Origin: Ostreococcus lucimarinus
Lineage: Eukaryota
Assembly: GCA_000092065.1 (NCBI GenBank)
Contig: CP000585.1
Length of the DNA: 64,000 nucleotides
Direction: 5' to 3' (one strand)
Shown in pieces: positions 12,770-43,093 of the stretch (the stretch's first letter is position 1; each line of letters opens with the position of its first letter). The notes below the pieces were generated by a model. It did not search any database. It had not been told where the DNA came from and saw only the letters and a list, made by a program, of their open reading frames with translations. The position numbers and the translations under genes were made by a program.

Positions 12770-13912
12770 ATGCCGAGCGTCGCCGTCGTCAAGTTCGGCG
12801 GCGCCGTGCTCACGGACAAGCGTCAACGCGGCGTCGTCGACGCGCGCGGGCTCGCGGATTGCGCGCGCGTCGCGCGACTCGCGCGCGACGCGGGCGCGTC
12901 GTTGATCATCGCGCACGGCGCGGGGAGTTTCGGACACGGTGCGACGCGACGGACGCGCGCGACGCGACGGACGCGATGGACGCGACGCGCGACTGACGCG
13001 CGCGGTGGCGACGCGGTCGCAGCGGAGGCGAAGGCGTGCGGGTGCGCGCGCGGCGGTGACTTGCGGGACGCGGCGTTCGCGCTGGGCGTCGACGGGACGC
13101 GAGCGAAAGTGCTCGAATTGAATCGACTCGTCGTCGACGCGCTGCGAGATGCCGGCGTGAACGCGCGAGGGATGACGCCGTGGCGCGAGGGGTGGCGAAC
13201 GCGAGGGCCGGGGCGGCCGGAGACGAGCGGACGAGACGAAGGACGCGCGGTGCTCGACGCGGTGCGCGACGGCGTCGTGCCGGTGATACACGGCGACGTG
13301 GTCGAGGACGTCGCGCAAGGCACGTCAGTGTTGAGCGCGGATACGATCGTCGAGATGTGCGCGAAATGGGCGATGGAAGAGTGGCCCGATGAGTGCCCGC
13401 GAGTGGTGTTTTGCAGCGACGTCTTCGGCGTCTACGACTCGCCGCCGACGACGCGAATCATAAACGCCGACGTCACCGACGGCGACGTACCGCTCCGCGT
13501 GAACGAAACCGAAACCGCCGTGCTCTTACGCGACATCATCGTCGACGCCGACGCCGACGCGAGCGATGGCACTCGCGTTCCCTGGCGATGCGCTCGCGCG
13601 TCGCCGCTCGCGCGTCTCGCCGAAGCCGCCGACGCCGCCGCCCTCGACGCCACGTTCGCCATCGACGACGCCATCGCCGACGTCACCGGCGGTGTTCGCG
13701 CCAAGCTCACCACCGCGATCGCCATCGCCTCGTATCTTCCCCCAGGCCCTCCCCGCGTGTTCCTCGCTCGGCCGGGCGCGTTTGCCGCCGAACCGTCGCG
13801 CGTCTCCGATCACGCCCTCAACGCCATCCTCGCCTTCGACGCGCGCGGCGCGCCCGACGATGCGGCACTGAATAATTTTATCGGCACCGCCATCGCGCGC
13901 CGCGCGCCGTAG
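12770..13912 (+). CDS. isopentenyl phosphate kinase (amino-acid kinase family); two exons 12770..12938 and 13023..13912
   Basis: VKFGGAVLTDK, HGAGSFGH, HGDVV, DVTGGVRAK match plant and archaeal IPK. An 84-nt in-frame intron 12939..13022 is inferred from a GTGCGACG donor, CGACTGACG branch point and CAG acceptor; removing it deletes an IPK-atypical TRRTRATRRTRWTRR insertion. Confidence 0.6.
   Translation: MPSVAVVKFGGAVLTDKRQRGVVDARGLADCARVARLARDAGASLIIAHGAGSFGHGATRRTRATRRTRWTRRATDARGGDAVAAEAKACGCARGGDLRDAAFALGVDGTRAKVLELNRLVVDALRDAGVNARGMTPWREGWRTRGPGRPETSGRDEGRAVLDAVRDGVVPVIHGDVVEDVAQGTSVLSADTIVEMCAKWAMEEWPDECPRVVFCSDVFGVYDSPPTTRIINADVTDGDVPLRVNETETAVLLRDIIVDADADASDGTRVPWRCARASPLARLAEAADAAALDATFAIDDAIADVTGGVRAKLTTAIAIASYLPPGPPRVFLARPGAFAAEPSRVSDHALNAILAFDARGAPDDAALNNFIGTAIARRAP
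12939..13022 (+). other. putative in-frame spliceosomal intron in IPK (84 nt)
   Basis: Donor gGTGCGACGCGACGG, branch point GCGACTGACGCG 24 nt upstream of CAG acceptor. Length is a multiple of 3, so the ORF track reads through it. Confidence 0.5.
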
Positions 13913-13956
13913 CGCCGATTTCCCCGTCTCGCGCGTCCCGCCTCGCGTGTCGTCCC

Positions 13957-16900
13957 ATGTCTAGAGTCCCAACCCTCCGCGCTCCGCGCGTCGGTCCCCA
14001 GTCGTCGCCTCTCGCGCCCGTCATGGCGCGCGCGAGCCGAGGCGTCGACGCGTCCGCCGACGCGAATGCCGACGCGTCCGACGCGCCCGCCGACGCGCCC
14101 GACGCGACGTCGCCGCACGTCGACGCGGCGGTGGGCGCCGACGACGTCGCGCCCACCGCCGCGATCGCGCCCGACGCGCAATCCGCGCCCGACGCGCACG
14201 ACGCGAGCGACGACGACGCGCCGAACGCCGCGAAATCGGAGAATAAAAACAGCACCGGTCGCGGAAGCGGACGCGCGAGCGATGGACCGCACGGTGGCGG
14301 CGGCGACGGGACGCTGACGGTCACCCCGGACTCGCCCGCGGACGAGACGTGGCGCGCGCGGCGCGGGCCGCTGGACGCGAGCGACGGTGGACCGTGGACG
14401 AGCGAGGACAGCGCGGGTGCGTGAGATTAATTCGACGCGCGCGACGACGCGCGCGGGACGGGAGAGGGCGCGAGAGGGTGGTGGCGACGCGATGATGGAG
14501 TGGACCTAGTGGTGGATCTCTCGCGACGCGCGACTGACGACGGATGTACCGACGGAAACAGGGCCGCAACCCGTGGACATGTACGGGAAATTCACGTGGA
14601 AGATTGAAAACTTTTCGGAAATCAGTAAGCGGGAATTGCGATCGAACGTGTTCGAGGTGGGCGGGTATAAGTGGTACATTTTGGTGTACCCGCAAGGATG
14701 CGACGTGAGCAATCACCTGTCGTTGTTTTTGTGCGTCGCCGATTACGACAAGCTGTTGCCGGGATGGAGTCATTTCGCGCAGTTTACGATTGCGGTGGTG
14801 AATAAGGATCCGAAAAAGTCCAAGTACAGCGATACGTTGCACCGGTTCTGTAAGAAGGAGCACGACTGGGGTTGGAAAAAGTTTATGGAGCTCACGAAGG
14901 TGCTCGACGGTTTCACCGTGGCGGACACGCTCGTGATTAAGGCTCAGGTTCAAGTGATACACGAGAAAGTCGCGAGACCTTTCAGATGCCTAGACCCGCA
15001 GTACAGGCGCGAGCTCGTTCGGGTGTACCTTACGAATGTCGAGGTGCGTAGAGGCGAAAAGCGACGTCTCGAGCCGTCGAACCGAAACATCCATCGTGCT
15101 GATGAAAACACATATCAAGCATTTCTCGTTCTGAGCAATATATTCTGATGAACATCTATACACCCATAGAATCTGAACGATGGATGGATTCGAGCTCGAC
15201 TGACTCGAGCGCGCGCGTGGCGAGACAAGCGACGACGACTGACTTTATTTTCATCTTGACCAAACGCAGGGCATTTGTCGAAGATTTTTAGATGAGAAGC
15301 GCGAGAAACTGATGACGATGCGCGCGGACGAAGAGCAATGGTCAAATCTTCGTCAATTCTGGAACTCTCGCGAGGGGAAAGAGAAGGTACAGCTCACGAT
15401 GGAGAAGTCTGACATTCTGCTCAAGGGGATCGTCAAGCGCTTCTTCAACGAAAAGGAAGTGACGTCGACGCTCGTCATGGATGCACTTTACTGCGGCTGC
15501 CGCGCGTTGGACATCGCGGAAAATGACTTGGAAGCCAAGGCGACCTCCGTGAGTACCTCGAATAAGTGCTCTGTGGCCATGAGCATCGTGCAAAACAAGA
15601 GTGTTTTGACGGGTGACTTTGTCTCGGCGCTCGAGCGGGCCGCTGACGGAACCGCGTTTGACGCGGACGAAGAAGACAAGAAATCCGCCTCGGATGACCT
15701 GTCCGCCACCGATGCCGTCGAACGCGATGAAAAACGATTAGCCGAACTTGGTCGTCGCACCATCGAGATGTACGTTCTCTCGCACGTGTTTGTCAACCGC
15801 GTCGAAATCGCGTTTCGCGAAGCCGAGGCGTTGATGCGCCAAGAGGCGCTTATCGCTGAGGAGGAAGAAGCCGAACGACTCGCACAAGAGCTTGAAGGTC
15901 AGAAGAAGAGCAAGAAGCAAAAGCAAAAAGAGCGTCAACGACAGAAGAAGGCTATCGAAGACGCTGAGAAGGCTGAAAAGGAGGCGGAAGAGGCTCGCAT
16001 TCGCGAAGAAGCCGAAGCGGCGAAGGAAGCTGAGCGCGCCGCCAAGGCAGCTGCTAAGGCAGCAGCGTTGGCAGAAGAGCGCGCGCGCGAGGAGGCGGAA
16101 GCGGCCATCAAAGCAAAGGCTGAAGCCGAAGCTCGCGCCGCGCGCGAAGCCAAGGCAGCGGCCAAGGCTGCCGAGAAGGCGAAACGAGAAGCCGAGGAAA
16201 AGGCCAAGGAGGACGAGGCGAGAAAGCTCAAGGAGGAAGCCGAAGCTAAGGCCGCCGCGGAGGCCGCGGCGAAGGCTATTCCGTCCCCTAAAGCTGATAG
16301 CCCTTCGACGCCCACCCGCACGAAGTCCATGTCGCAAGTTTCGTCACCTTCGAAGGTTATCCCGGCTCCGTTGTCGAACGAAGTGAGCACGTTGCGTTCG
16401 CGAATCTCTCAGCTCGAGCTTCAGCTCGACGAGAAGACGAGCGAATGCGCGCAACTTACCGCGGATTTGGACAAAGCGAAGGATATTATTTTGCAACTAC
16501 GAAGCGAGATGGTGAGCGGTGTATCGTCGATGTCGATGCAAAAGCAGTCGTCCATGGAGTCGCTTGGCGATGTCGCTCGTACCGCCCAGGCGGCTTCGGC
16601 GATGCTCGGCGATAGCACCAATATCGTGCGCATGGGATCATCGAGCATGATCGCGAATGGCGCATCCAACGGTGCGGTGACGTCGGGTATGCAGCCGATT
16701 TTGGCGAGCGCCAAGTCGCAGCCTCCGCTTCCTCCCGGGCCTCCGCCTCCAGGAAGCGGCGACGTCGGTCCGCCGCCGCCGCCGCGCGGTCCGCCGCCGC
16801 CTGGTTCGGCGCGCGTGAACGAAACTGGACCTGCATCGCCGCAACACAGTTCTAACAGCGGCTTACCGCCTTCCTTCGCCGCCATGGCGGCTGGATCGCG

Positions 16901-17120
16901 TCCGCCAGAACCTCCAGTGGTGCCGCCCGGCATGAGTAGCTACGGTCAACAACCGCCGCCGCCCGGCATGGGTCAGCAAGTCAATCCGCTCGGCACACCG
17001 CCATCGATGAAAACTATGGCCCCACCTCCGGGGATGGGTCACCCTTCCACGTGGTCTCCGGGCATACAGGAAGAGTTCCCGCACCTCGGCATGATCAGCG
17101 ACCTGTTGGACTTCGATTGA
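13957..17120 (+). CDS. MATH/TRAF-domain plus coiled-coil protein (Arabidopsis TRAF1a/At5g43560-like); exons 13957..14416, 14562..15043, 15270..17120
   Basis: Exon 2 encodes the MATH domain (YGKFTWKIENFSEISKRELRSNVFEVGGYKWYILVYPQGCDVSNHLSLFLCV...HDWGWKKF). Exon 3 begins GICRRFLDEKREKL...ILLKGIVKRFFNEKEVTSTLVMDALY, then E/A/K coiled coil and a Pro-rich tail, all collinear with At5g43560. Both introns have GTGCGT donors, GACTGAC branch points and CAG acceptors with consistent phases. Start may be the second Met at 14023, because 13957 is only 45 nt from the IPK stop. Confidence 0.7.
14417..14561 (+). other. intron 1 of MATH gene (145 nt)
   Basis: GTGCGTGA donor, GCGACTGACGACGG branch point, AACAG acceptor. 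Phase 1 is consistent on both sides. Confidence 0.6.
15044..15269 (+). other. intron 2 of MATH gene (226 nt)
   Basis: GTGCGTAG donor directly after ...YLTNVE. Two GACTGAC motifs; CGACGACGACTGAC lies 29 nt upstream of CAG acceptor. Exon 3 resumes in phase 0 with a conserved sequence. Confidence 0.75.
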
Positions 17121-17341
17121 TCGCGTCGCGACGTTTGGGGACGACGACAAACCACATCCGTCATCGATATCCGCCGCTAGCGAGCGAAACAACTGAAAAC
17201 CTGAACCCAGGAGAGTAGATAGACCGTCGCGCTTCCACGTAGAGCTTGGAAAGACAAATTCTCCTCATTTAAAACTTTTCCTCGCGAGCGCTAACGCGCC
17301 GTCGCGTCACTGCTCGACGCGTCACTGCTCGACGTCGCGCC

Positions 17342-22603: not shown

Positions 22604-23670
22604 CTACTTCTTGCGCCTGACGGCTGGCTTGCGCTTCTGCGCCGGTTTACGCTTCGTCGCGGGCCTGCGAGCGGACGCGCCCGAGGCTTTGGAGGTCTCC
22701 GCGGCGCGCTTGCGCTTGGCGCCGACGGCGACGTCTTCGTCGTCGACGTCTTCGTCCTGGTCGAAGAGCGAACCGACGCCGAAATTCTCCATGCCGCCCA
22801 TCGCGCTCGGGTCTTCGCGAAGCTGCACGAACTCGCGGTGTACGCTCTCGATCTTGGCTACGTCGGCGTTGACGGCGACGACGACGACGGTGCCGGCGCT
22901 CGAGACGACGCGCGCGTTGTACATCACGCCCTTCATGTCAACCTTGAGCGCGCGCGAGGACTCGGCGAGCCAACGACCCACGGCGCCGGTATCGCCGTCT
23001 AAATCCACCGCCTCTCCGGCGCCTTCGATCTCAAACAAAACCTTGGACTTACCGCCTAAATTCGCCGTCGCGACGAGCTCCACGGCTGTCGAAGACGACT
23101 CCGCCGCCGGCTTCGCCGCGAGCGCCTTCGCCGTCTTCCCTTCGCTCGCCTTCGCCGCGTCGCCCGTCTCCCTCGCCGTCGTCGTCCCCATCGCGTCCTC
23201 ATCGCCACCACCGTCCCTCACCGCCGCCCTCGCCTCGTTCTCCTTCCCGTCGTCCGCGTCCACGATTCTCAAATCGTCGTCGCTCGACGAAGCCGCCGCC
23301 GCCGTCGCCGCCGCGCGCGTCCGCTCCGGCGACTTAAATTTCTCCACCCACGCCGGTTCGCTCTCGCTTCCCGATCCATCGTCGTCCGCGATCGTCGGCA
23401 GCGTCACCGTTCGTTTCTTCGTCGGCGTCGTCGTCGCCGTCTATCGCGCGTCGCGTCGTCGTTTCGTTTCGTTGCGTCAGTCGGTCCGCCGCGTTTGAAT
23501 TCCAGACAGCTCGTCGCGCGCGCGTCGCCATCCATCCATCCATCCATCCATCGTCGTCGCGTCGCGTCGTCGTCGTCGCGCACCTCGATCGGACTCGCGA
23601 CGGCGCGCAGCAGACTCGGTAACGGTTTGAACTCGTCGTCGTCGCTCGAGTCGTCGTTGATGACGATCAT
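22604..23670 (-). CDS. hypothetical acidic protein with basic C-terminal tail (NLS-like); exons 23670..23584 and 23440..22604
   Basis: Exon 1 MIVINDDSSDDDEFKPLPSLLRAVASPIE ends at a GTGCGCGACGAC donor. Intron 23441..23583 contains (ATGG)6 and branch point CCGACTGACG with acceptor GCGATAG. ORF-track start at 23407 is GTG inside exon 2. Ends ...KRKPAQKRKPAVRRKK. Confidence 0.45.
23441..23583 (-). other. intron (143 nt) containing a (CCAT)6 microsatellite
   Basis: On the minus strand: donor GTGCGCGACGACGACG, branch point CCGACTGACGC, acceptor ATAG. Phase 0 on both sides. Confidence 0.5.
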
Positions 23671-25572: not shown

Positions 25573-25604
<32 letters not shown>

Positions 25605-27219: not shown

Positions 27220-28024
27220 ATGGCCTCCACCTCGTGCGCCTTTTCCGTCACCGCGCGTCCGCGCGCGACGAACAAATCCACCGCTCGCGGTAAACGCGTC
27301 GTTCGCGCCCGCGCGGCGGACGCCGAGGCCGCGCCGGCGGTGGATGTGAGCTCGACCGAGGTGCGATCGCGACGCCTCTTCGCCATCGTTTTCGCGCGCG
27401 CGACGCGAACGACGCGCGCGAGCGCGCGCGAAACGCGGCCGAGACGCGGATGCGATCGCGTCGCGTCGCGGGGGTCGACGACGCGGCGCGCGCGATCGGA
27501 GGCGCGATGAAAGAGACGCGGATATGCGAAAGTTATCCATAAAGACGACGAAGGCGCGCGGCGACGGGAGGACTGACGACGAAGGCGCGCGCGCGCGACG
27601 AACGCAGGTGAAGCAGTTCTACTACTGCGTCGCGAACGCCGATTTTATGCTCAACGATGAGAACAACGAGCACTTCCCGGAGATTTTGCGCGAACGACGA
27701 CGATTCTTCAAGGAAAAGTCCAAGCCGCAAGACTTTTGGATCGTGCCGAACCCGGCGTTTTTGGACGCGATGCCGGACGTGAAGAAGAAGATTCGTCAGC
27801 CGTGCGTCGCGGTCGTCACCACGGACAAAGTTTGGAACGATTTCGTCAAGTTGCGCATGGATAGAGTGTACAAGGGCGGCGTCGAGGGCGCGGTGTGCGA
27901 TATTTTGAAGAGCTCCGCCGCCATCGATCCGAACGCGTTCCCGGCGCCGACGAATTGGACCGCGCCGTACGCCAAGTACGCCGCGGGTTGGTGGAACGCC
28001 TTCGAGCCCAACGGTGGATTTTAA
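27220..28024 (+). CDS. Ycf54-like (DUF2488; Mg-protoporphyrin monomethyl ester cyclase accessory) plastid protein; exons 27220..27360 and 27608..28024
   Basis: Exon 1 is a transit-peptide-like MASTSCAFSVTARPRATNKS...VDVSSTE ending at a GTGCGATCGCG donor. Intron has branch point GGACTGACGACG and acceptor ACGCAG. Exon 2 VKQFYYCVANADFMLNDENNEHFPEILRERRRFFKEK..DFWIVPNPAFL resembles Ycf54 (from memory of cyanobacterial Ycf54). ORF-track N-terminus 27524 is translated intron. Confidence 0.5.
27361..27607 (+). other. intron (247 nt) of Ycf54-like gene
   Basis: GTGCGATCGCG donor. GGACTGACGACG branch point about 35 nt upstream of CAG acceptor. Phase 0. Confidence 0.5.
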
Positions 28025-29639: not shown

Positions 29640-31988
29640 TCAGAGCTCGGACTTTTTGCTCTTCTTCTTCTTTCTTCTGCGTTTTTTCGCCTTCTTGGCA
29701 GCCTCTTCTTTGAGCTTCGCCTCCTCCGCTAAGATGGCGTCGAGGCGCGCCTGCGTCTCGAGTTCCTCCTGCGCTCTCTGGGCGAGGTCCTCACGTGACA
29801 GCGCGGCCTCGCCTTCGACTTCCTCGCTCATAATATCGCTCAAATCGAATTCTTCCTCGACGATTTCTTCCTCGACGATTTCCTCCACCGTCTCTCCACC
29901 TTCGACCAGCTTCGGCATCTCTTGAAACCTCCACGTCTTCACCTTGCCGCCGAGAATGTCTGTACAAAAGTCTCGAACTGCAATCTCGTCGAAAGCGCCC
30001 TTGTGCGTGGCGTAACGCGACGTGCGCATCGCCAGTACAGTCACAGTGGGATAATCCACTGGATTGTTCACGTCGAAGACGCTCGAGAATGTGCGCTGCT
30101 TGGTCGGATCGACGATGGCGAAATGATACGGCTTGCCGTACAGCGCCTTGGCGACGGCGTGGATAATCTTCTTGTGCTCCGCGTTGTCGTCTTTGATGAA
30201 CGCCACGACGCACAAACCACCTTTTGCCGCGCATTGTTCGTCGAGCGCCGCCGATGTATCCACGGTCATCGGCATCGAGACCAGTGCGTCCTTGTCGACG
30301 CCGATGACGTGGTCTCGAATCTGCTGCAACCACGAGTTGACGATGGGCGTCATCAACTGTTCGACGGGGTACTTTTGAACCGACATGCGCATGCCACCCT
30401 CTTCGTCGGAGTTTTTATCGGCTTCGCGATATACCACGACGAGCGCGGGTCGAGTCTTGATCTGGAACTGCTCCGTCAACGCCTCGCTGGTGTCCGACGT
30501 AACGCCGTAGATGAAATCTTTCTGCACCGCAGACATCAGGTGAAGCACCTTTCGAGACGTCTCATCGCTCTCATCGGCGAACAGCAATACTTTGGGCGCC
30601 ATGGACGCGACGCCAAACAACGCGCTGTCGATGTTCTTAGCCGTGACAGGAATGGTGGTGTCGACGACGTTGTCGAGAAAGAATCGCCCGACGGCGTCGG
30701 GAGCAAAGCCTTCAATAGTCGCGACCGATGGCTTGAAAACGATCGGATCGCGATCGTCGTCTTCGTCATCGGTCGATGGGAACATGACCAATTCCGCACA
30801 CTTATCTTTGGACTTGAACAATCCGAATTTCGTCACCAAAGCCCGTGCGGCTTCGTCGTCGTCTCGCGCGATGACTTCTCGGAAATCAAAGACGCCTTCG
30901 TACTCGTGGAAACTTTTGGGTAAGGCGTCGACGAGTTCGACGCACTCGTCGCTAGCCTTCGTGAACGCGACCACCTGAATACGCTTGTGATTCGACAGCA
31001 CGTCGGTTTCGAAATCTTTCGCGAGCGCAGGCTTGAAAAGAGACGTCGAAAAGTCTTGTTTTTGCCCATCCTTTTTCGGCGTCGCGTCGATGGTTTCCAT
31101 CTTCAACTCCACCTCCGGTCCGGCGTGCTCGGTCAAGAACTCCAAAACCACTTCGCGCTTCATCGACGCGCTCTCAAAGGGAATCGGCGTCGCAGAAACG
31201 TCGGTCGGGTACACGACGAGTCGCGCGTCCTCGGGAGCGCCGGGCAACTGCGGCGCGACGTCGCCCTCGTACACCGCCTCGATGAAGCGCACGCGACCCT
31301 CGAGAGCGTGAGAGATGGATTTCAACAACGCCGACGTCGACGGTTTGTTCGTCAATAAAACAGCGATCGGCAGCGTGACGTCGCCACCGAAAGCCGCGCG
31401 AATCGACGCCGCGCTCGCGAAGCGCTCGGCGTCCTCCGTCGCGCTCGCGCGATTCACCAAGTGCGTCGGCAAAGCGTTTTCCGCGAACGCCGCGAACGCC
31501 TTCGCCCGCACGTCCCCAACCTGACCGTCTTCTCGCGAAATCGGATAATTCACCGGCATTTTCGCCGACCGCCGCGCGTCGTACGGATTCAACGTCGCGA
31601 ACGTCGGGTACGCGCTCACCGCGGGAATCGTCGTCAACCGCGTCAGCCTCCCCAACCGCTCGAGATCGACCCCCTCCCTCGTCACGTCCAGGCTCCCGAA
31701 ATTCACCCTCAATTTCTCCCCCGCCCCCCTCGCCGCCTTCTCGAACTCGCGCGACACCTCCCCGCAGATCGCGCACTTCTCCGAGCTCCCCGTGAACGAC
31801 ACCACCCACGGCTCGCGCGAGCGCGTCGCCAGCGTCTCGAACGCGTCCACGTCCAGCGTCACCACCGCGCCCTCGCCGCGCGCGCCGCGCGCCCTCGCCA
31901 TCGCGAGCATCGTCACCACCGCCCCGAGCGCGCCTCGCGCGCCGCGCGCGCGTCCTCGCGTCGTTCGCTCGCGAGAACGCGCGAACAT
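29640..31988 (-). CDS. PDI-family thioredoxin-domain ER protein (one CxxC active site, further Trx-like domains; basic tail ending KSEL)
   Basis: Signal peptide, then WVVSFTGSSEKCAICGEV (thioredoxin-like CAIC). Multiple Trx-like repeats. K/R-rich C-terminus ...KKKKSKKSEL. ATG placed at 31988 (MFARSRE); ORF-track start 32267 reads through the (CGTT)n 5' region. Confidence 0.5.
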   Translation of the reverse strand: MFARSRERTTRGRARGARGALGAVVTMLAMARARGARGEGAVVTLDVDAFETLATRSREPWVVSFTGSSEKCAICGEVSREFEKAARGAGEKLRVNFGSLDVTREGVDLERLGRLTRLTTIPAVSAYPTFATLNPYDARRSAKMPVNYPISREDGQVGDVRAKAFAAFAENALPTHLVNRASATEDAERFASAASIRAAFGGDVTLPIAVLLTNKPSTSALLKSISHALEGRVRFIEAVYEGDVAPQLPGAPEDARLVVYPTDVSATPIPFESASMKREVVLEFLTEHAGPEVELKMETIDATPKKDGQKQDFSTSLFKPALAKDFETDVLSNHKRIQVVAFTKASDECVELVDALPKSFHEYEGVFDFREVIARDDDEAARALVTKFGLFKSKDKCAELVMFPSTDDEDDDRDPIVFKPSVATIEGFAPDAVGRFFLDNVVDTTIPVTAKNIDSALFGVASMAPKVLLFADESDETSRKVLHLMSAVQKDFIYGVTSDTSEALTEQFQIKTRPALVVVYREADKNSDEEGGMRMSVQKYPVEQLMTPIVNSWLQQIRDHVIGVDKDALVSMPMTVDTSAALDEQCAAKGGLCVVAFIKDDNAEHKKIIHAVAKALYGKPYHFAIVDPTKQRTFSSVFDVNNPVDYPTVTVLAMRTSRYATHKGAFDEIAVRDFCTDILGGKVKTWRFQEMPKLVEGGETVEEIVEEEIVEEEFDLSDIMSEEVEGEAALSREDLAQRAQEELETQARLDAILAEEAKLKEEAAKKAKKRRRKKKKSKKSEL

Positions 31989-32037
31989 CTTTTTCCGAAT
32001 CCAATCAATCGAATGGAATGGAATCGAATCGTTCGTT

Positions 32038-32072
32038 CGTTCGTTCGTTCGTTCGTTCGTTCGCGCGTTCGC
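32038..32072. repeat. (CGTT)n tetranucleotide microsatellite, about 8 units, in the 5' region of the PDI-like gene
   Basis: cgttcgttcgttcgttcgttcgttcgttcgttcg. Confidence 0.9.
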
Positions 32073-32507
32073 GCTTCCCGCGTCGTGAATCTCCCGCGAC
32101 GCACCGTCGCCGTTCGCCGTCGCCGTTCGCCGCGCCGCGCGAAGCCGCGAATGCCGCGCGCGCGCGCCCATCCATCCATCGCGCCATCGTGCGCGCGCGC
32201 GTCGAGCGAGGTGCGCACACCGAGACGGGATTTCATGATTCAGACCTGTCGCACGGTTCGGAAGCACGCACAGCCATAAAAGTCACTCGAATACGTATTA
32301 AACATCGATAAAAGTCACCGCGACGCGCCGCGCGCGATCCGATCGCGCGCGCGCGATCTCCGTCCATCGCGGCGATGGATATACGTATCGATAGATGGCG
32401 TTAAAACGGACTCGAATGCGGGAACCGGTTAACGATAAACACCCCGCACGTCGCGATCGACGCCGCGTTCGTCGCCGTGGATCGCGCGCGCGGCACACCC
32501 GACCACG

Positions 32508-33458
32508 ATGCACGCCGCGCTCACGCAATCGACGACCCTCGCCGCGACCGCGGTCGCCGCGACGCGCGCGACGACGTCGAAGACGACGCGCCGATCGTTG
32601 GTGATCATGAATAACTCCTCGGGGCCGAAGCGGGTGCGCGACGCGACGCGACGACGGGAGACGCGACGGGAGACGCGCGAACGACGCGCGCGCGGATCGA
32701 TCGATCGATCGATCGCGGGCGAGCGATCGATCGCGACGGGCGACGCGAGAAGCGCGCGAACGGAGGCGTGAGGGGGGAGAGCGGACGATGGGAAATTCGG
32801 CGATCGGTCGCGCGGGAGACTGGGCGCGGGCGGGACTCGGGGAAACGGCGAGGGGGGGGCGATCGCGACGCGCGGGGTTGGGGCGCGAACGAGGGCGCGC
32901 GAGGGGACGCGGGGAGACGGGGGGCGTGGAGCGACGACTGACGACGAGGCGCGCGCGCGCGTGATGTGTAGGGCACGAAGTCTGCGCCGGCGCAACGCGC
33001 GGTCGGCTACAAGGGCTCCACCGATGCCGGATCGGCGCCGAAGACGTGCGTGATGCGATGCGATGCGACGCGAGCGTATCTGGACGTTATCTCGCGCGCG
33101 ATATGGCGGGAAGACGCGCGGCTGGGGGTGTGGCGACGATTGCGGGGCGCGCGAAGGCGAAAAAAATGGAAGAGGACGTAAAGATTAAGGCGCGCGCGCG
33201 CGATGGGTTGAGAGACTGACGACGACGACGACGACGACGCGTGACGCGCGCAGGCGAAGCGGCAAGGCTGGCTACGTCTACAAGCTCGGCTTGCGCAACG
33301 GCAAGGCGAACGTCGACGAGTACTCCCCGATCTGGGTGCCGCAAGACTTCAAGTCCGATGGTGATAAGTACGAAGGTAACTTGGTGTACTGGGCGGCGAC
33401 TTTGGCCGGTATCATCGGTACGGGCGCGCTCGCGATTTACCTCACCTCTGCGCTCTAA
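32508..33458 (+). CDS. psbR: photosystem II 10-kDa protein PsbR; exons 32508..32633, 32972..33045, 33254..33458
   Basis: Exon 3 encodes SGKAGYVYKLGLRNGKANVDEYSPIWVPQDFKSDGDKYEGNLVYWAATLAGIIGTGALAIYLTSAL, matching the PsbR C-terminus (...GYGVYKF..GANVDGYSPIY...LLVYNTSAL). Exon 2 (GTKSAPAQRAVGYKGSTDAGSAPKT) and exon 1 (transit peptide MHAALTQSTTLAATAVAATRATTSK...) are inferred from GTGCG donors, GACTGAC branch points, AG acceptors and phase consistency. Confidence 0.55.
32634..32971 (+). other. psbR intron 1 (338 nt) containing a (GATC)5 microsatellite
   Basis: GTGCGCGACGCGACG donor, CGACGACTGACGACGAG branch point, TGTAG acceptor. (GATC)5 at 32695..32714. Confidence 0.45.
33046..33253 (+). other. 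psbR intron 2 (208 nt)
   Basis: GTGCGTGATG donor. GAGACTGAC(GAC)6 branch region. CGCAG acceptor. Phase 2 on both sides. Confidence 0.6.
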
Positions 33459-33869
33459 GCGCGAGGCGACTTCATCGCGGGAGCGAATCCAAGTGATGTT
33501 TCGAGCGACGCTCGGCGACGGCATTATTCGGCGTCGGACGTCGGCGAATCAAAACTTTCACCTCCCATTTAGAACTTTGGCGAAACGGACGATAGAAAGC
33601 GAACGACCGCAACGAACACAACATGTAATCCCACACAACGCGTGGATCTTAACGCCTCTTTCGAAACGACTTTCGCCGCGACGGCACATCGCTCGAATTC
33701 GCGCGCGTTTGAGGAGACGACAGTGATTAACTAGTACTGTGTGTGTTCATTGACATCATCACGAAGTCGGAGTTGTGTGGTGTTATTGGCTTTCGGCGTT
33801 TTTTTGTTTGTTTTCTGGTGGGTGGGTATTTGGGATGTTTTTTTTGTTTTCGTATCGGCTCGAGTGCGC

Positions 33870-36449
33870 TCACTCCGAGCCTTGCTTGAGCTTGCTCGGA
33901 TCGATGGATCCGATCATTCCGCCCATACCGTCGCCTCCGAACTGCTTCATCGCGATGCGTTGTTCCTCGAGATCGATGGTTTGCTCTTGGTTTTCGAGCG
34001 CCTCTCGCGCCTTGGCGCGCGCCTCTTCTCGCGCCTTGGCCTCGGCTTGCTTTGCGGCTTCTTCGGCAACTTTTTTCGCCTCTTCAGCTGCTTTCTTTTC
34101 CGCTTCCAGTCGCTCGCGCTCGGCTTGCGCCTGCGCCTCGTCCTCTTTTCTGGATTCGTCGAGTTGTTGCTTTTGTTGAGCCGCGGCTTCGAACTCATTC
34201 CACAAGTCATCCGGAATGGCATCCTGCGTCGCCGCTTGCGCGCTCGCGTTCACTGGCGCGTCAGAACTCGCCAGATTTTCCCAACCTGACGGATTTTGGA
34301 CGTTCACCGCCGCCTTGGAGACGTTTTGTTTGATGCCCGGAGCCTCCTTGGCGAACTGGTTAGACGACTGGTCGACGGGCGCGGCGGCACCGGTGACGGC
34401 GGCGCGCTTCTCCGGATTACTGCCAGCACCTTCCGCGCTATCCATGCTCGAAGTGTCTGAATCCGAATCTCCGGAATCGGTGTCGGTATCGGAGTCGTCG
34501 TCGACCGGTTTCTTTTCTGGCTTTTGAGCCGACGGCCCGGCGCTGTTGAGATGAACGACGTCTTGGTAGCTTCCTCCGGTCTCTTGAACCTGCTGCAATG
34601 TTTGCTCGACAGCCGCAAGCTCGCGCGCGGCTTGCGCTTCACGCATTTTCGCCTCAAGAAGCTGCTCAGCGGCGTTGAGCTTACGCTTCTTCGGACGAAG
34701 CACGCCATTGACGTATTTGTGAAGTTTCCAGAGCGTGGCCGCGGGAAGCTCTTCGATGTTGATTTCGATCTCATCTTCCTCCCCTTGGCCCAAAGCTTGT
34801 TTCGCTTCACTAACAATTTGTACGACTCGATCCTGCTTGTCTTCGGGAAGTTCTCCAAGCAACATTGTGAGCTCAGACTTTTCATCAAAAGTCATATCGC
34901 GCGAGGGCGTCGGCGCCGGTCGCGGACGCGAGTAGCCTCCTTCGCTCCTGAATCCACGCTCTCGCTTGATTTCCTTTCGAATCCGGCCTTCCTCCTTGTA
35001 CTCCTTGTAAGTGTCTTCATCCATGCGCGCGTCATCGAAGTCGAAGTCGGGATCTTCATCTGGGTCTCTTTGTCTTTTGACCGCCCCGCGAGACCGAGAC
35101 TTTGGTCGCGGCATCGGTTCGTCGTCCCAATCATCTTCGTCGTCTTCCTTGTATATAACTTCTTGCTTGGCGCGCTTCAGTTCCTCAATCTCGCGTCTGA
35201 CCTTTTCGAGTTCCGCTCTAGCGTCTTCGAGGACAGCCACCTCAAGACTGATGGGCGTGGCGGGCGTGTTGCGAATTTCAATGTCCTCGTGCTCTCGAAT
35301 TTCGTTTTCGATTGAGACGTAGTCTTCGAGATCGCTATTCAACCACGCGGTTTCGAATAACTGGCGGACGGTTTCAGTCATGACGCCAGCATCTGACGCC
35401 GTGCCGTTGTACAGAAGGCCGTTGGAGAAGATTAAGCGCATGTCGGCGCAAAACTCAGCGGGGTTGAGATATGCCTTGGTGTCGAGCTTCGTCTTCACCG
35501 TGCCCATATCCATCGGGTTCTTGATGATGTCAAAGTAGTCTGGCACCCCATGCTTTTTCGGGTCGACCGGCACAAGGAAAATCTTGTGATACTTGTGCTT
35601 CTTCGACGCTATTAAAACTTCACGGCAACGTCTTATCATTTCCTTGCGTCGAGCGTCGCGCGCCTGCTCAACTTCGTACTCCTTTTGCAAACGCTGCGTC
35701 GTGACAGCGCGGCCATCCCTTAACTTCTTGACGCCCGCAAGATTTGCCGCGGAGCCCTTCTTCTTCGACCCGTAGGACGAGACGCCGTAACCATCGTACG
35801 GTTGCGTCGCCTTGATCGGTCGCGCCGACGCCGGACGCGGCGGAGGTAACCTGGCGAATTGTAACTGCTTCTTCGCCTCGATTTCCGCCACCTTGGTCTT
35901 GGCCTCCTCGATGGCCGCGAGACGCTTCGCCAACTCTTCCTTCTTACGACGCTTTTGCTCTTTGCGTTGCAGCTTCCGCAAAGCAAGCTCCTCTTCCGTA
36001 CACTCTTCGTCCGGTTTTTCTGGAAGCTTTGCCGAATCGTCGCCCGGCGCCGCAAACATCCCGCCGCCCTCGTCGTCGCCCGACGCGAACATCCCGTCAT
36101 CTACCTTGGCCGACGGTCTACGCACGCGTTTCTTACTCTCCAACCAATTCGAGTCAAACGCCGCGTAATCACCCGCCGGCATGTACGCGTACCCTTTCGG
36201 CGCCTTCATCGACTGATTCAGCGTCAACAAGATCTCCCCGCGGGCCGCCGACACCGCGTTCGCCGGCCACGTCGCCGCCGCCGCGTTCGCACCCGCGGCC
36301 GCCGCCGCCTCCGTGATCGCCCCATCCTCCGCGGGCGTATTCGGCGCGTCCGTCATCGCCCCATCTCCCGCCTCCGTCGCGCGCGCGTCTGGTTTTTCCC
36401 CATCCGCCGCCCCCGCTGGCGCCGTCGCCGCCGCCGCCACCGCCGTCAT
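33870..36449 (-). CDS. BET-family bromodomain protein (bromodomain plus ET/NET domain; GTE-like transcription factor)
   Basis: Bromodomain HKIFLVPVDPKKHGVPDYFDIIKNPMDMGTVKTKLD...YNGTASDAGVMTETVRQLFETAW. ET-like EEDEIEINIEELPAATLWKLHKYV. Coiled-coil and acidic C-terminus. ATG at 36449. Confidence 0.75.
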   Translation of the reverse strand: MTAVAAAATAPAGAADGEKPDARATEAGDGAMTDAPNTPAEDGAITEAAAAAGANAAAATWPANAVSAARGEILLTLNQSMKAPKGYAYMPAGDYAAFDSNWLESKKRVRRPSAKVDDGMFASGDDEGGGMFAAPGDDSAKLPEKPDEECTEEELALRKLQRKEQKRRKKEELAKRLAAIEEAKTKVAEIEAKKQLQFARLPPPRPASARPIKATQPYDGYGVSSYGSKKKGSAANLAGVKKLRDGRAVTTQRLQKEYEVEQARDARRKEMIRRCREVLIASKKHKYHKIFLVPVDPKKHGVPDYFDIIKNPMDMGTVKTKLDTKAYLNPAEFCADMRLIFSNGLLYNGTASDAGVMTETVRQLFETAWLNSDLEDYVSIENEIREHEDIEIRNTPATPISLEVAVLEDARAELEKVRREIEELKRAKQEVIYKEDDEDDWDDEPMPRPKSRSRGAVKRQRDPDEDPDFDFDDARMDEDTYKEYKEEGRIRKEIKRERGFRSEGGYSRPRPAPTPSRDMTFDEKSELTMLLGELPEDKQDRVVQIVSEAKQALGQGEEDEIEINIEELPAATLWKLHKYVNGVLRPKKRKLNAAEQLLEAKMREAQAARELAAVEQTLQQVQETGGSYQDVVHLNSAGPSAQKPEKKPVDDDSDTDTDSGDSDSDTSSMDSAEGAGSNPEKRAAVTGAAAPVDQSSNQFAKEAPGIKQNVSKAAVNVQNPSGWENLASSDAPVNASAQAATQDAIPDDLWNEFEAAAQQKQQLDESRKEDEAQAQAERERLEAEKKAAEEAKKVAEEAAKQAEAKAREEARAKAREALENQEQTIDLEEQRIAMKQFGGDGMGGMIGSIDPSKLKQGSE

Positions 36450-37266
36450 CGCCTCGGAATCCGCAAGATCTGATCAAACAGTCACGACTTCGCCAACTTC
36501 TCCTACGCGTTCGATCGCACAACGTCGCGCCGTCAGTATTCGTTCGTTCCGCGGAAAATTCCACCGCCGCTTCGCCCTCGCGCGCGCCCCGCGTCGCGTT
36601 TCCCGCGCGATGAATGTTTCAGAAATTCAACCCTCGGAATCGCATTCGCGCGCCCCGCGCCCTCGCGCGCGCGTCCCGCGCCCGCCGACGCGTCGCGCGC
36701 GCCGGATCGCGCGATTTCGGATCGCGCGCGTCCGCGTCGCGCGCCCGCGACGCGCGCGCGCGGCGTAAACCGCGACGAATCGTCGACGATAATTCTTTGA
36801 GAGAATGACGTCGGCGCGACGATCTCGACGCCGTGTCGCCGCGCGCGCGCGCCGTCGCGCGTTGCGGACGTCGCGCGCGCGACGCGCTCTTCGCGTTTCG
36901 CGCGCGCGCTTCGCGCGGCGATCGAACGGCGCACCTTTGGACGGAGAGGAGGGGAAAAGAAGTGGCGCGAGGCGGCGGAGGGCGCCGCATCTGGACGAGC
37001 TCGCGAGCGACGGGCTCGACGCGACTCGACGCGCGATCCAGGTCGCGCCAGAGCGCGCGCGCGAAGTCCTGAGCGTAAAATACAATACAACGACGCGAGA
37101 AGCGTCGATGAGCGACGAGACGCGACGCGAACGCGCCGCGCGCGTCGATGGACGAGACGCTATCGAGCGGCGCCGAAGCGCGCCGCGAAGGAGCCGAGGC
37201 GGCGGTTCGGCCGAGGCGACGAAACCGCGCGTCCGAACGAACGATCGGCGACGCGGCGCATCGTCA

Positions 37267-37797: not shown

Positions 37798-37801
37798 CGC
37801 G

Positions 37802-39666: not shown

Positions 39667-39918
39667 CGCGCGTCGCCGTGTCCGAGGCGCGCCGACGACC
39701 GCGTCGGAAACGCTCGCCGTTTTCGAGCGTTTTCGCGAAAAATAAAATCTCAAGATGCACAACCCTCGCGTATTGCGTCACTCTCGAGCCAGATCATAGA
39801 ATCAAGCGAAAAGTGAGGCTGGACGTCGTCGCCAGCGCGTGCGCTTTTTGTCCCGAGCGACGATCGACGCCGCACAGCGACGCGCTGGACGCGCACCGCG
39901 CGCGCGACGCCCGCGAGC

Positions 39919-41673
39919 ATGCGCGCCGTGACGTTCCCGAACGCGCGCCCGACGGGCGCGACGCGAACGGCGCGAGCGCGCGCGCAGGCGGCGAAACGCG
40001 CGACGCGGGGCGGCGATCATCAACGCAATCCGCGAAATGTCGAGAGGCATCGACGGCTGAGCGTCGTGATGCGACGCGATCGCGACGTCGCGATGCGCGG
40101 GGGGGTGAACGAAACGTTCGTGGATCTCGGAACGGCCTCGGGAGGGGTCGAGGAGGAGAAGGTGAGGGCGTCGGGGAAGACTCGGGACGACGAAGGGGAG
40201 ATGCTGTCGTTCGTGGTCTTCGGCGCGAGCGGGGACTTGGCGAAGAAGAAAATCTACCCGGCGCTGTTCGCGCTGTATTACGAGGGACGGTTGCCGAAGA
40301 ATTTCATGATTTACGGCTACGCGCGATCGAGCATGACGACGGAGGAGTTTCGGAATAAAATCGCGGAGTCGTTGACGTGTCGCATCGACTGGAGTAAGGC
40401 GGGGGAGAGCGACTGCGCGGCAAAGTCGGAAGAATTCTTCGCGCGGTGCGTGTACGTGCCGGGTCAATACGATCAAGCGAAGGACTTCAAGGCGTTGGAC
40501 GCGTTGATGTGCGAAAACGAACGCGCGGTTAGCAGCGTAAAGCGCGTGTTTTACCTGAGCATTCCGCCGAGCATCTTTGTACCGGTGGCGCAAAACGCGG
40601 CGCGCGAGTGCCAAAGCAAGACTGGGGACACGAGAGTCATCGTAGAGAAACCGTTCGGGAGAGACTTGACGAGCTCTCGCGAGTTGACCGCGGCGCTCGC
40701 GCAAGACTTGAGCGAGGAGCAAACGTATCGCATCGATCACTACCTCGGGAAGGAGTTGATTGAGAATCTCACCGTCATGCGCTTTTCGAACATCATGTTC
40801 CAACCGCTTTGGAACAGAAACTACATCCGCAACGTGCAAATCAACTTTAGTGAAAACTTTGGCACCGAAGGTCGCGGTGGTTATTTCGATAACTACGGCA
40901 TCATTCGCGACATTATGCAGAACCACTTGCTGCAAATCTTGGCGCTCTTTGCGATGGAGGAACCGGCGAGCCTGGACGCGGAGGACATTCGCAACGAAAA
41001 GGTCAAGGTGATTCGCTGCATGCGTCCGATTGAGATGGATAATGTCGCGTTGGGTCAGTACAAAGGACGAGAAACCGATGGGAAGAAGTATCCGGCGTAT
41101 TTGGACGACGAGACAGTGCCGAAGGGGTCGCTTTGCCCGACGTTCGCCGCGATGGCTTTGTTCATCGATAACGCGCGTTGGGACGGCGTACCGTTTTTGC
41201 TCAAGGCGGGTAAGGCCTTGCACAAGCGTCAAGCGGAGATTCGCGTGCAGTTCCGTCACGCACCTGGTAACTTGTACGGGGAAAGACAAGGTAGAGTTGA
41301 GCACGTCACCAACGAGCTCGTGATTCGCATTCAACCAGACGAAGCGATCTACTTGCGTATCAACAACAAAGTCCCGGGTTTGGGGCAGCGATTGGATCAA
41401 ACGATTTTAGATCTCCAATACAAGAACGCGTACGGTCAAGTTGAGCTTCCGGATGCGTACGAGCGTTTGATTTTGGACGTCATCAACGGCGACAAGCGTC
41501 TCTTCATTCGCAACGACGAACTCGAAGCGGCTTGGAAGCTCTTCACCCCGCTCTTAGACAAAATCGAAGAGCAAAAGATCGCACCGGAGCTTTACCCGTA
41601 CGGATCTCGTGGTCCGATCGGCGCTCACTACCTGGCTTCGCGTTTCAACGTGCGATGGGGAGACACCGAATAA
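39919..41673 (+). CDS. G6PD: glucose-6-phosphate 1-dehydrogenase, plastidic type (transit peptide)
   Basis: NADP site [20 protein letters not shown]6PD signature RIDHYLGKE. Collinear with plant plastidic G6PDH through ...[24 protein letters not shown]. Confidence 0.85.
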
Positions 41674-41813
41674 GCCCGCGCCCGCGCCGCAGCAGCAATT
41701 TTGTAAAACTTACGCAAGCTCGCAAGTATAAATAAAAACAACTTCATTAGATTTCATTAGTAATATTGGTTACGTGTGTTTTTCGACGGTGTTCGCGCTT
41801 CGTACGAGCTTGA

Positions 41814-43093
41814 TCAATCACTAATCTCGTACAAGACCTTTCCGCGAGATTTACCGGCTTCGAGGTAGTTGTGACCCTCAACGCACTGCTCAAGCGGGAA
41901 GCAGCGGTCGACGGCGACTTGAAGCTCGCCAGAAGAAATCCAGCCGAAGATGTCGTTCGCACGTTCCATGAGCTCTTCGCGAGTGACGGTGTAGTCGTTC
42001 AACTTCGGGCGGGTCAAGTAACCAGACTTGTTGATGAAGCGAAGCGGCGGGAACGCCGGGACGGCGCCGGAGGCATTGCCGAAGGAAACGAAGATACCGC
42101 GGCGAGCCAAGACGTCGATGGAGGTCTCGTACGTGGCGAGGCCGATGCCATCGATGACAGCCTTGACACCTTCGCCCTTGGTGATTTCCATCACTCGCGG
42201 CACGAGGTCGACCGAGGTGTAGTCTTCGTAGGACGTACCCGGCGCTTCATCGTACACGATGAGCTCATCGACGCCCGTGGCGCGCGCGATGTCCTCCTTG
42301 CTCTTAGAGCACGTTCCAATGACCTTGTATCCTCGAAGTTTGGCCATTTGCGCCGCCCATTGGCACGTGCCCGAGCCGGTGCCGTGAATCAACATCCACT
42401 CGCCCGGCTTCACCAGCCCGGCGTGCGCCGAGTGCGTGAGGTAGTGCGCCGTCATTCCTTGCACCCCGCACGACACCGCGACGTCCAAAGGAATAGACTC
42501 CGGTACCGTGATCACCTTGCTCGCCGGCACCGCCGTATACTGCGCGTACGTTTGAAACACAGACGAGTAGCTCACGCGGTCGCCGACCTTGACGCCTTGC
42601 GCTATGGCTTCGTCGCTCGCTGCCGCGATGTATCCACCACCCTCTTGACCGCCGATAAAGGGTAACTCGCGCTTGTACAAACCACTTCGATGGTAGGTAT
42701 CGATAAAGTTAATACCGGAGTACTTATTCTTCACGATGACGCCCCCCGCCGTGAGCTTCGGCGTGGGGTAATCCTTCTCGATCTTCATGTTCGACGCCGG
42801 TCCCGTCTCGCGGATCACCGCCGCGGTCTATATCGCGCGTCGCGTGCGTACGCATATCGTCAGTCGTCGATCTCGTCGCGCCACGCCGCCGCGCGGGGCG
42901 CGCGCGACGCGCACGCGTCGGTTTTCGTCGTCAAAAAGTGTCCCGGTGGATAAGCCGCCGCCAGACACTCTTTCGCGTCGCGTATTCGGTCGTTTCGAGC
43001 GCGCGCGCGCACCATGACATCGGGGACGCCCGACGCGAACGCGCGAACGCCCGTGAGGGTCTTGCGGAGCGAACGAGCCGATCGAGCGAGCAT
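41814..43093 (-). CDS. NADPH:quinone oxidoreductase (zeta-crystallin/Qor/Zta1-like MDR); exons 43093..43013 and 42827..41814
   Basis: KNKYSGINFIDTYHRSGLY and FVSFGNASGAVPAFP...LTRPKLNDYTVTREEL match E. coli Qor and yeast Zta1. Exon 1 MLARSARSLRKTLTGVRAFASGVPDVM looks like a mitochondrial presequence. Donor GTGCGCGCG; branch point CGACGACTGACG; acceptor ATATAG. ORF-track start 42818 is GTG. Confidence 0.65.
42828..43012 (-). other. intron (185 nt) of quinone oxidoreductase gene
   Basis: Minus strand: GTGCGCG donor immediately after exon-1 ...DVM. CGACGACTGACGATATG branch point 26 nt upstream of the TAG/ACC acceptor. Phase 0. Confidence 0.55.

Follow-up and report, generated by a model that had tools for sequence, protein, structure and literature searches.

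Nine introns with near-invariant splice signals, very probably canonical U2-type introns, in a 64-kb window of the Ostreococcus lucimarinus genome

The 64-kb stretch of DNA analyzed here (the window) is nuclear DNA of Ostreococcus lucimarinus CCE9901, and its proteins, both spliced and single exon, are identical to entries of that strain. A first-pass annotation made from the sequence had proposed nine introns in the window, one each in IPK, an acidic gene, SYP71, Ycf54, and QOR and two each in a MATH/TRAF gene and psbR. All nine were confirmed to be real, at the positions proposed or no more than two bases away: five by contigs that lack the intron, four by GenBank proteins (two introns on both counts), and the MATH pair by protein homology. 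The phases had been described as consistent, and indeed, every spliced model stays in frame. The introns are 84 to 338 nt long, with a GC content of 0.49 to 0.79. To judge from the GC content of the window (~0.61), which belongs to a contig of 847,696 bp, and from the type of the introns, they may lie outside the low-GC outlier region of chromosome 2. A dip in GC at 48 to 54 kb was considered as possible outlier-chromosome sequence and rejected, as it corresponds to a single Piezo-like open reading frame of 2,458 amino acids.

Excision was shown for five introns. For IPK, the acidic gene, SYP71, Ycf54, and QOR, 50-nt exon-exon junctions were found with 0 mismatches in intron-less Logan contigs from public sequencing runs (at least 10 independent runs). 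Because the introns are precisely absent, we infer that these runs are cDNA, the run type being read from the contigs themselves. The IPK intron (12939 to 13022, + strand, 84 nt) is stop-free and in frame, with the donor GTGCGA, CGACTGACG at 12990, and the acceptor TCGCAG. Two independent contigs (L001 and L002) lack exactly this segment and match the window perfectly in all other respects (100% identity over 1,131 nt), and in the protein collection the spliced form of IPK is present and the unspliced form absent. The acidic-gene intron (23583 to 23441, - strand, 143 nt, phase 0) combines GTGCGC, an (ATGG)6 repeat, CGACTGACG at 23483 to 23476, and GATAG, and its junction is exact in three contigs (L003, L004, and L005). 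In the SYP71 intron (25694 to 25547, - strand, 148 nt, phase 2), GTGCGT is followed by (GAC)10 leading straight into CGACTGAC at 25576 to 25569; a CAG 4 nt past the branch motif is skipped in favor of GATAG. The SYP71 junction is exact in contig L006, and the spliced protein equals XP_001418101.1 exactly. The Ycf54 intron (27361 to 27607, + strand, 247 nt, phase 0; GTGCGA, GGACTGACG at 27570, ACGCAG) has its junction exactly in L006 to L009, and a contig of 4.4 kb follows the genome collinearly, with only the SYP71 and Ycf54 introns missing. Finally, the QOR intron (43012 to 42828, - strand, 185 nt, phase 0; GTGCGC, CGACTGACG at 42866 to 42859, ATATAG) is backed by exact junctions in L010 to L013 and by a spliced protein that equals XP_001418107.1 exactly. 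Together with the two psbR introns, those of SYP71 and QOR are thus already incorporated in GenBank proteins.

In psbR, intron 1 (32634 to 32971, + strand, 338 nt, phase 0) carries GTGCGC, (GATC)5, CGACTGACG at 32935, and GTGTAG, and intron 2 (33046 to 33253, + strand, 208 nt, phase 2) carries GTGCGT, AGACTGAC at 33213 leading into (GAC)7, and GCGCAG. The GenBank protein XP_001417867.1 corresponds to residues 34 to 134 of our spliced model and therefore spans both junctions; the GenBank model appears to lack 33 N-terminal residues, and an exact look-up of the full-length spliced model (134 amino acids) in the protein collection gave no match. Homologues align without gaps across the intron 1 junction, and their alignment also backs intron 2. 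In Micromonas pusilla, psbR has both introns at the same codon and in the same phase, with GTGCGT and CGACTGACG/CGCTGACG, and the position of intron 1 is also common to Bathycoccus. We compared 14 environmental haplotypes, taken from genomic metagenome contigs recovered by a look-up of the BET protein encoded in the window. Among them, psbR intron 1 is invariant over its first 18 nt and over its final ~60 nt, which include the branch motif, and the interior shows single-nucleotide polymorphisms, an indel of a 12-nt repeat unit, a 129-nt deletion in one haplotype (L023), and a 36-nt gap beside an unresolved run of N in another (L014). The length of psbR intron 2 does not vary among the 14 haplotypes.

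The two introns of the MATH gene are proposed from homology. Intron 1 (14417 to 14561, + strand, 145 nt, phase 1) reads GTGCGT, CGACTGACG at 14531, and AACAG, and the predicted junction aligns without gaps to the closest homologue; P0313, a protein from a related taxon, is spliced at this site, and P0335 keeps the intron. For intron 2 (15044 to 15269, + strand, 226 nt, phase 0; GTGCGT, CGACTGAC at 15236, ACGCAG), the predicted junction YLTNVE|GICRRF is crossed without gaps, and its conservation extends from algae to land plants. Scans of metagenomes for the exon-exon junctions, either both or junction 2 alone, gave no match, so that the MATH gene is without an O. lucimarinus transcript, and the full-length spliced model (930 amino acids) was absent from the protein collection in an exact look-up.

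An additional argument for intron 2 comes from its predicted content, a C/D box small nucleolar RNA (snoRNA) at 15091 to 15183 (+ strand). In O. tauri, Ot-CDsno53 is an intronic C/D box snoRNA of the MATH/TRAF gene ostta05g04430 and was shown to be a stable small RNA guiding 2'-O-methylation of 18S rRNA in that species (Bousquet et al. 2020, PMC7671301). The orthologous intron is common to both species, and the O. lucimarinus segment matches the published Ot-CDsno53 in 88 of 93 aligned columns (~95%), with three substitutions and two 1-nt indels. The predicted snoRNA lies in the same host gene and shows a 7- to 10-bp terminal stem along with boxes C, D', C', and D, as in O. tauri. When the intron was scanned permissively, the best Rfam match was snoR8a at 29.1 bits, under the gathering score of 37, and Rfam at gathering thresholds gave no match over the whole window. 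MATH intron 2 thus probably does an additional job as the carrier of a C/D box snoRNA.

All nine introns begin with GTGCG, followed at position +6 by T (four introns), C (three), or A (two), exactly the GTGCG[T/C/A] donor that had been described. The acceptors are CAG (5/9) or TAG (4/9) and the branch A lies 23 to 36 nt from the intron end, in good agreement with the [C/T]AG acceptor and the short spacing claimed previously. The statement on the branch motif was only partly correct: GACTGAC, and with it ACTGAC, is present in all nine introns, but CGACTGAC in 7/9, as is the extended form GACTGACG. That all introns share CGACTGAC was therefore slightly overstated, since the motif reads GGACTGAC in Ycf54 and AGACTGAC in psbR intron 2. 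When both strands of the 64-kb window are counted, ACTGAC occurs at just 19 sites; nine of these are sense oriented and fall inside the nine introns, no more than 50 nt from the 3' end (binomial P ~3e-18). Its placement in the introns is not due to chance. Eight of the nine introns are devoid of a U-rich tract, and there was no sign of conserved secondary structure in the introns (minimum free energy z-scores of -2.5 to +1.8), the most extreme value being that of MATH intron 2, the putative snoRNA carrier.

The first-pass annotation had further stated that four introns carry a short tandem repeat abutting the branch point. This is true of SYP71, where (GAC)10 sits immediately 5' of the branch point, and of psbR intron 2, where the repeat begins within the branch motif and extends 3' of it, although it comprises seven GAC units rather than the six reported. 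It is not true of the acidic gene, where (ATGG)6, a (CCAT) repeat at 23528 to 23552, lies ~45 nt upstream of the branch point, or of psbR intron 1, where (GATC)5 lies ~200 nt upstream. The (CCAT) repeat is length polymorphic in environmental contigs, and the SYP71 (GAC)n differs by one GAC unit between environmental alleles. In psbR intron 2, the (GAC)n located 3' of the branch point and ahead of the AG is invariant in the 14 haplotypes; tracts upstream of branch points vary.

The introns interrupt the coding sequence after nucleotide 169 of 1,059 in IPK, 460 and 942 of 2,793 in the MATH gene, 87 of 924 in the acidic gene, 50 of 843 in SYP71, 141 of 558 in Ycf54, 126 and 200 of 405 in psbR, and 81 of 1,095 in QOR. 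They are hence biased to the 5' ends of genes, as canonical introns are. With first exons of only 50 to 460 nt, a single-exon, prokaryote-style track of open reading frames mis-models ~40% of the genes in the interval covered by the first-pass annotation; 7 of its ~18 genes have introns in their coding sequence, making the earlier remark that such a track yields wrong N termini for about a quarter of the genes a fair one. The main value of the present analysis lies in this quality control of gene models, the constrained signals of this intron-poor picoalga having been in print since 2008.

Taken together, the nine introns are almost certainly ordinary "canonical" U2-type spliceosomal introns of O. 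lucimarinus, the class found on normal-GC chromosomes in all Mamiellophyceae. Both this intron type and its uniform signals are already known and published for the same genome. Introns of O. lucimarinus outside chromosome 2 that are confirmed by expressed sequence tags have the 5' splice site GTGCGTG, ACTGAC in 87% and GACTGACG in 66.5% of cases, a branch-to-AG distance of 20 to 35 nt, and a preference for CGCAG acceptors (Irimia & Roy 2008, PLoS Genet, PMC2483917). Our introns come from the same organism and share these signals, the richness in GC, and a length of ~100 to 300 nt; nothing material separates the two sets, CGCAG being found in just 4/9 here and TAG in 4/9. The match to this consensus bears out the earlier reading of a yeast-like constrained splicing as seen in Mamiellophyceae. 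Like hemiascomycete yeast introns (GTATGT ... TACTAAC), the nine introns belong to an intron-poor genome, show hardly any variation in 5' splice site and branch point, keep the branch-to-AG distance within narrow limits, and are biased in position towards the 5' end, but their signals are GTGCGT and GACTGACG, they are GC and purine rich, and 8/9 have no U-rich tract. Canonical introns of Micromonas have an AG|GTGCGT donor and an NCTGAC branch motif (Verhelst et al. 2013, PMC3879977) and resemble ours in being few per gene, 5' biased, and singletons in sequence, the psbR introns being positionally orthologous; in contrast to the 23 to 36 nt that separate the branch A from the intron end here, their branch motif is reported 43 to 52 nt from the acceptor. 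BOC1-type introns of the outlier chromosome (<75 nt, <43% GC, weak signals) are clearly different from these longer, GC-richer introns with strong signals.

The uniformity of the signals had also been taken as a possible mark of introner-like elements, recently propagated as in Micromonas, in which case the signals would stem from the common descent of the copies. The IPK intron and MATH intron 1 do share 18 identical nucleotides in a row around the branch point, and the short class IE-C (~67 nt) of Micromonas RCC299 also has the branch motif GACTGACG (PMC3879977). Introner elements (IE-A to IE-D) are, like the introns studied here, GC rich, sense oriented, and fully spliceable. They are, however, multicopy, with conserved interiors and novel positions, and they prefer gene centres (PMC3879977), whereas the nine introns have unique sequences, a 5' bias like canonical introns, and conserved positions in at least three cases. 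Scores of interior pairs averaged 13.0 compared to 12.2 ± 2.6 for dinucleotide shuffles, and the alignment of intron interiors that had been suggested as a check revealed, within this window, no conserved internal sequence past the splice signals. Copies were sought elsewhere in the 64-kb window and none were found beyond short, CG-rich, low-complexity matches, which lie on both strands and in many cases outside the nine introns. The other suggested check, intron presence in related species, was positive for both psbR introns (Micromonas), psbR intron 1 (Bathycoccus), and MATH intron 2 (O. tauri); this comparison of positions covered the psbR and MATH introns, leaving the introner reading some room at those of IPK, the acidic gene, SYP71, Ycf54, and QOR. 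Since the interiors are at shuffle level, copies are absent from the window, and the psbR and MATH intron 2 positions are shared, and with the literature reporting introner elements absent from mamiellophycean genomes besides Micromonas, we regard such a family as very improbable. Hardly better are the prospects of a narrower proposal, in which some introns (those of the same five genes, most plausibly the 84-nt IPK intron) would have been gained within the lineage from a short, low-copy element that resembles IE-C and carries GACTGACG and, separately, the branch-flanking (GAC)n would be constrained in length; taken jointly, we consider these two ideas very improbable. If (GAC)n were so constrained, the repeats would be tuners of the branch-to-AG spacing and not neutral products of slippage.

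Even less credible is the view that some of these introns are not spliced, the stop-free 84-nt IPK segment being a coding insert and the motifs a compositional coincidence in a CG-rich genome. The unspliced IPK reading frame is open (380 amino acids), prokaryote-style gene calls of 383 amino acids are present in metagenome data, and CGACTGAC taken alone is only weakly over-represented in the window (9 matches versus 4.3 expected). Against this stand the two contigs that lack precisely the IPK segment, the clustering of ACTGAC in the final 50 nt of the introns, and the contigs or GenBank models that back the remaining junctions. For seven of the nine introns this view is already refuted, the MATH pair excepted.

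How are canonical introns of this kind recognized? In this intron-poor genome, each intron is probably identified through near-consensus signals. The donor is the 5' splice site GUGCGU, and at the branch site GACUGACG, ACUG_C would pair with the GUAGU sequence of U2, leaving the A bulged. The acceptor is then the first usable YAG ~23 to 36 nt past the branch A; one that follows the branch by just 4 nt is skipped, as in SYP71. The pairing with U1 and U2 is deduced from snRNA sequences of the congener O. tauri only, in which the U1 5' end (AUACUUACCUG) and the U2 branch-binding GUAGUA are canonical (Supplementary File 2, PMC7671301). Divergent snRNAs were therefore rejected as the cause of the odd consensus, and complementarity to snRNAs does not account for the conserved C at donor position +4 or for the conserved sequence flanking the branch motif; on these two points the window adds no new leverage. 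The interior, a GC- and purine-rich low-complexity sequence, is probably unconstrained and mutates by slippage, hence the microsatellites. The (GAC)n runs by the branch point probably grew out of the GAC-rich context that the extended branch consensus CGACGACTGACGACG provides. The introns are probably old; they are concentrated near the 5' ends of genes, and at least some positions are common to other genera.

A scan for the same signals yielded two additional candidates. A putative tenth intron, which lies outside the interval of the first-pass annotation, is found in a KIX-domain gene (63293 to 63428, + strand) and has GTGCGT, AGACTGACC, a spacing of 28 nt, and GACAG; the reading frame joins across it, and a match to Pfam KIX_2, weak at E = 4e-4, covers the junction. 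The other is a candidate 5'-untranslated-region (UTR) intron of the bromodomain (BET) gene (36503 to 36934, - strand; GTGCGC, TACTGACG, 30 nt, CGTAG), which, according to the scan and our reading of the sequence, would stop 53 nt ahead of the ATG at 36449. Transcripts spliced in this 5' UTR were sought through the look-up of the BET protein, which returned genomic metagenome contigs only. Among the 14 haplotypes that these contigs represent, 3 of the 432 positions of the candidate intron vary.

The nine introns proposed in the first-pass annotation were fixed by reading the sequence at each site, and every joined coding sequence is in frame. They lie in IPK (12939-13022, + strand), the MATH gene (intron 1, 14417-14561, +; intron 2, 15044-15269, +), the acidic hypothetical gene (23583-23441, -), SYP71 (25694-25547, -), Ycf54 (27361-27607, +), psbR (intron 1, 32634-32971, +; intron 2, 33046-33253, +), and QOR (43012-42828, -). 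By exact-sequence look-up, the spliced SYP71 and QOR models showed no difference from XP_001418101.1 and XP_001418107.1, respectively, and single-exon neighbor genes in the window matched O. lucimarinus CCE9901 entries. For transcript-level evidence, we took advantage of the Logan collection of short contigs assembled out of public sequencing runs. These contigs aligned to the window at 99 to 100% identity with exactly the proposed introns missing, and because this absence is so precise, we infer that they are cDNA. The spliced IPK, acidic-gene, Ycf54, and QOR proteins were identical to gene calls on such contigs, and the spliced SYP71 protein to a called gene on contig L006. Searching with the 50-nt exon-exon junctions at 0 mismatches recovered those of IPK (2 contigs), the acidic gene (3 contigs), SYP71 (1 contig), Ycf54 (4 contigs), and QOR (4 contigs). 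L006 (4.4 kb) carries several genes collinear with the genome without the SYP71 and Ycf54 introns, and it has the look of a transcriptome assembly from a very compact genome.

In psbR, GenBank protein XP_001417867.1 (101 aa) equals residues 34 to 134 of the spliced model and therefore spans both junctions, which were also crossed without gaps in an alignment of full-length homologs, MMETSP transcripts among them. The deposited protein begins at Met34 of the open reading frame (ORF), within exon 1 (32508-32606, +). Alignments to homologs in Micromonas, Bathycoccus, and MMETSP transcripts start at Met1, and 33 transit-peptide residues are therefore probably missing from the GenBank model. For the MATH/TRAF gene, exact protein look-up and metagenome scans for the junctions found no O. 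lucimarinus transcript, and its introns are supported by homology. Junction 2 (YLTNVE|GICRRF) is free of gaps, its conservation extends from green algae to angiosperms, and the closest homolog aligns without gaps over junction 1. Among the MATH entries of a related taxon (P0313, P0334, and P0335), one contig is spliced at the intron 1 site and the others keep the intron.

MATH intron 2 is compositionally odd, with a GC content of 0.49, a second ACTGAC, and the lowest folding z-score of the nine. In O. tauri, an intron of the MATH/TRAF gene ostta05g04430 contains Ot-CDsno53, the most abundant snoRNA of that species by read count, reported to guide methylation of 18S U1231 (PMC7671301). The segment at 15091-15183 (+) is identical to the published Ot-CDsno53 in 88 of 93 aligned columns (~95%), harbors C, D', C', and D boxes and a terminal stem of 7 to 10 bp, and is the sole such C/D candidate in the window. 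Rfam at gathering thresholds missed it, the best match being plant snoR8a at 29.1 bits, below the gathering score of 37. Judged from its sequence, MATH intron 2 hosts a C/D box snoRNA orthologous to Ot-CDsno53, which lends independent support to this segment being an intron.

The splice signals had been described as uniform. This holds for the 5' splice site, GTGCG in all nine introns (position +6 being T in four, C in three, and A in two), and for GACTGAC, also present in all nine, but not for the longer motif CGACTGAC, which is common to seven; the exceptions are Ycf54 (GGACTGAC) and psbR intron 2 (AGACTGAC). The branch A is positioned 23 to 36 nt from the intron end, and the acceptor is CAG in five introns and TAG in four. 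With both strands counted, the 64 kb contain only 19 copies of ACTGAC, nine of these in sense orientation in the final 50 nt of the nine introns (binomial P, ~3e-18); the nine-intron observation holds and is well beyond what chance would produce. SYP71 skips a CAG just 4 nt past the branch motif and uses a TAG 23 nt from the branch A. SYP71 and QOR each have two GTGCG donors available, and the contigs reveal the one in use. A polypyrimidine tract is missing from eight of the nine introns; in these, purines predominate on the sense strand, both over the intron as a whole and in the branch-to-acceptor segment (pyrimidines, 0.30 to 0.43; T, ≤0.14; e.g., 12998-13019, 33221-33250, and 42829-42858). 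A T-rich tail is found only in the snoRNA-bearing MATH intron 2.

Such constrained-signal introns are already published for exactly this genome. Irimia and Roy (2008; PMC2483917) describe O. lucimarinus introns nearly word for word as the first-pass annotation did: among EST-confirmed introns outside chromosome 2, the 5' splice site consensus is GTGCGTG (4.8 bits), ACTGAC occurs in 87.2% and GACTGACG in 66.5%, the branch-to-AG distance has a broad peak at 20 to 35 nt, and CGCAG is the preferred acceptor. Verhelst et al. (2013; PMC3879977) call this class canonical introns, found in all Mamiellophyceae, and the attribution to the yeast-like constrained splicing of this group was right. Beyond this, we add only the Ot-CDsno53 orthologue, two further candidate introns, and population data, on a small scale, for the intron microsatellites. 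Divergent snRNAs had been raised as a possible match to the odd consensus (PMC2483917). In the O. tauri snRNAs published in 2020, however, both the U1 5' end (ATACTTACCTG) and the U2 region that binds the branch site (GTGTAGTATCTG) are canonical (PMC7671301). If these congeneric snRNAs are representative of O. lucimarinus, the pairing of GUGCGU with U1 would include a G-U wobble at +3 and leave +4 mismatched, ACUGAC would pair with U2 GUAGU with one wobble, and the conserved branch flanks (CG upstream, G downstream) would not pair with U2.

Alternatively, the nine introns could be introner-like elements, that is, repeated, recently propagated introns of the kind known from Micromonas, as had also been suggested. 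Within this one window, this reading is not supported. With the signals trimmed, intron interiors had a mean best local alignment score of 13.0, at the level of dinucleotide shuffles (12.2 ± 2.6), and the alignment of the top pair, Ycf54 and psbR intron 1, was gapped, CG-rich, and of low complexity. When the introns were compared with the whole window by BLASTN, the matches were only short, CG-rich, and of low identity; they occurred on both strands, many outside the nine introns. Furthermore, both psbR introns have counterparts at identical codon positions and phases in Micromonas pusilla CCMP1545, where they flank an exon 2 of 74 nt as in O. lucimarinus and have GTGCGT donors and branch motifs CGACTGACG or CGCTGACG; Bathycoccus psbR has intron 1 only. 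Finally, the nine introns are all located in the 5' part of the respective gene, like the canonical introns of Micromonas and unlike introner elements, which seemed absent outside that genus (PMC3879977).

Four intronic repeats had been placed at the branch point. Tandem Repeats Finder and direct counting found all four, but only two touch the branch motif: (GAC)10 in SYP71 and (GAC)7 in psbR intron 2 (a count that includes the GAC within CTGAC). The acidic-gene (ATGG)6 and the psbR intron 1 (GATC)5 are located farther upstream, at ~45 and ~200 nt from the motif, respectively. In four introns the extended branch context is the GAC-rich CGACGACTGACGA, from which the GAC tracts therefore seem to have grown by slippage. 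We then turned to thirteen environmental genomic contigs of O. lucimarinus (L014 to L026), each covering part of the window. In 14 haplotypes of psbR intron 1, the first 18 nt and the last ~60 nt, including branch motif and acceptor, are invariant, whereas the interior is hypervariable: it has numerous SNPs, an indel of a 12-nt repeat unit, a gap of 36 nt in L014 adjoining an unresolved N run, and a deletion of 129 nt in L023. The SYP71 GAC tract differs by one unit among the environmental contigs, and the acidic-gene ATGG tract is also length polymorphic. The (GAC)7 of psbR intron 2, located between branch point and AG, has the same length in 14 of 14 haplotypes, and this intron shows 2 variable sites only and no length change. 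Taken together, these population data are what one would expect of introns whose signals are constrained and whose interior is free.

Two further ACTGAC sites of the 19 mark additional candidate introns predicted from the same signals. One, in a KIX-domain gene near its 5' end (63293-63428, +; GTGCGT, AGACTGACC, 28 nt, CAG), lies outside the previously annotated interval (12939-43012); the reading frame joins over it, and a weak Pfam KIX_2 match crosses the junction. The other is a candidate 5'-UTR intron of 432 nt in the bromodomain (BET) gene (36934-36503, -; GTGCGC, TACTGACG, 30 nt, TAG), with almost no variation (3 variable sites among 14 environmental haplotypes).

The acidic hypothetical protein (22604-23670, -) had no Pfam match; its C-terminal half presumably resembles plant BIN4/MID, an accessory subunit of topoisomerase VI. 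GC content averages ~0.61 over the window, and the dip at 48 to 54 kb arises because an intron-less ORF of 2458 aa (47419-54795, -), with Piezo mechanosensitive-channel domains (THU9-anchor and cap) and an fn3 domain, has a GC content of ~0.50. The gene order thioredoxin/PDI-like, psbR, bromodomain BET (29640-36449) is common to Ostreococcus and Micromonas (contig L027), and the PDI-like gene adjoining psbR is kept in Bathycoccus also (contig L028).
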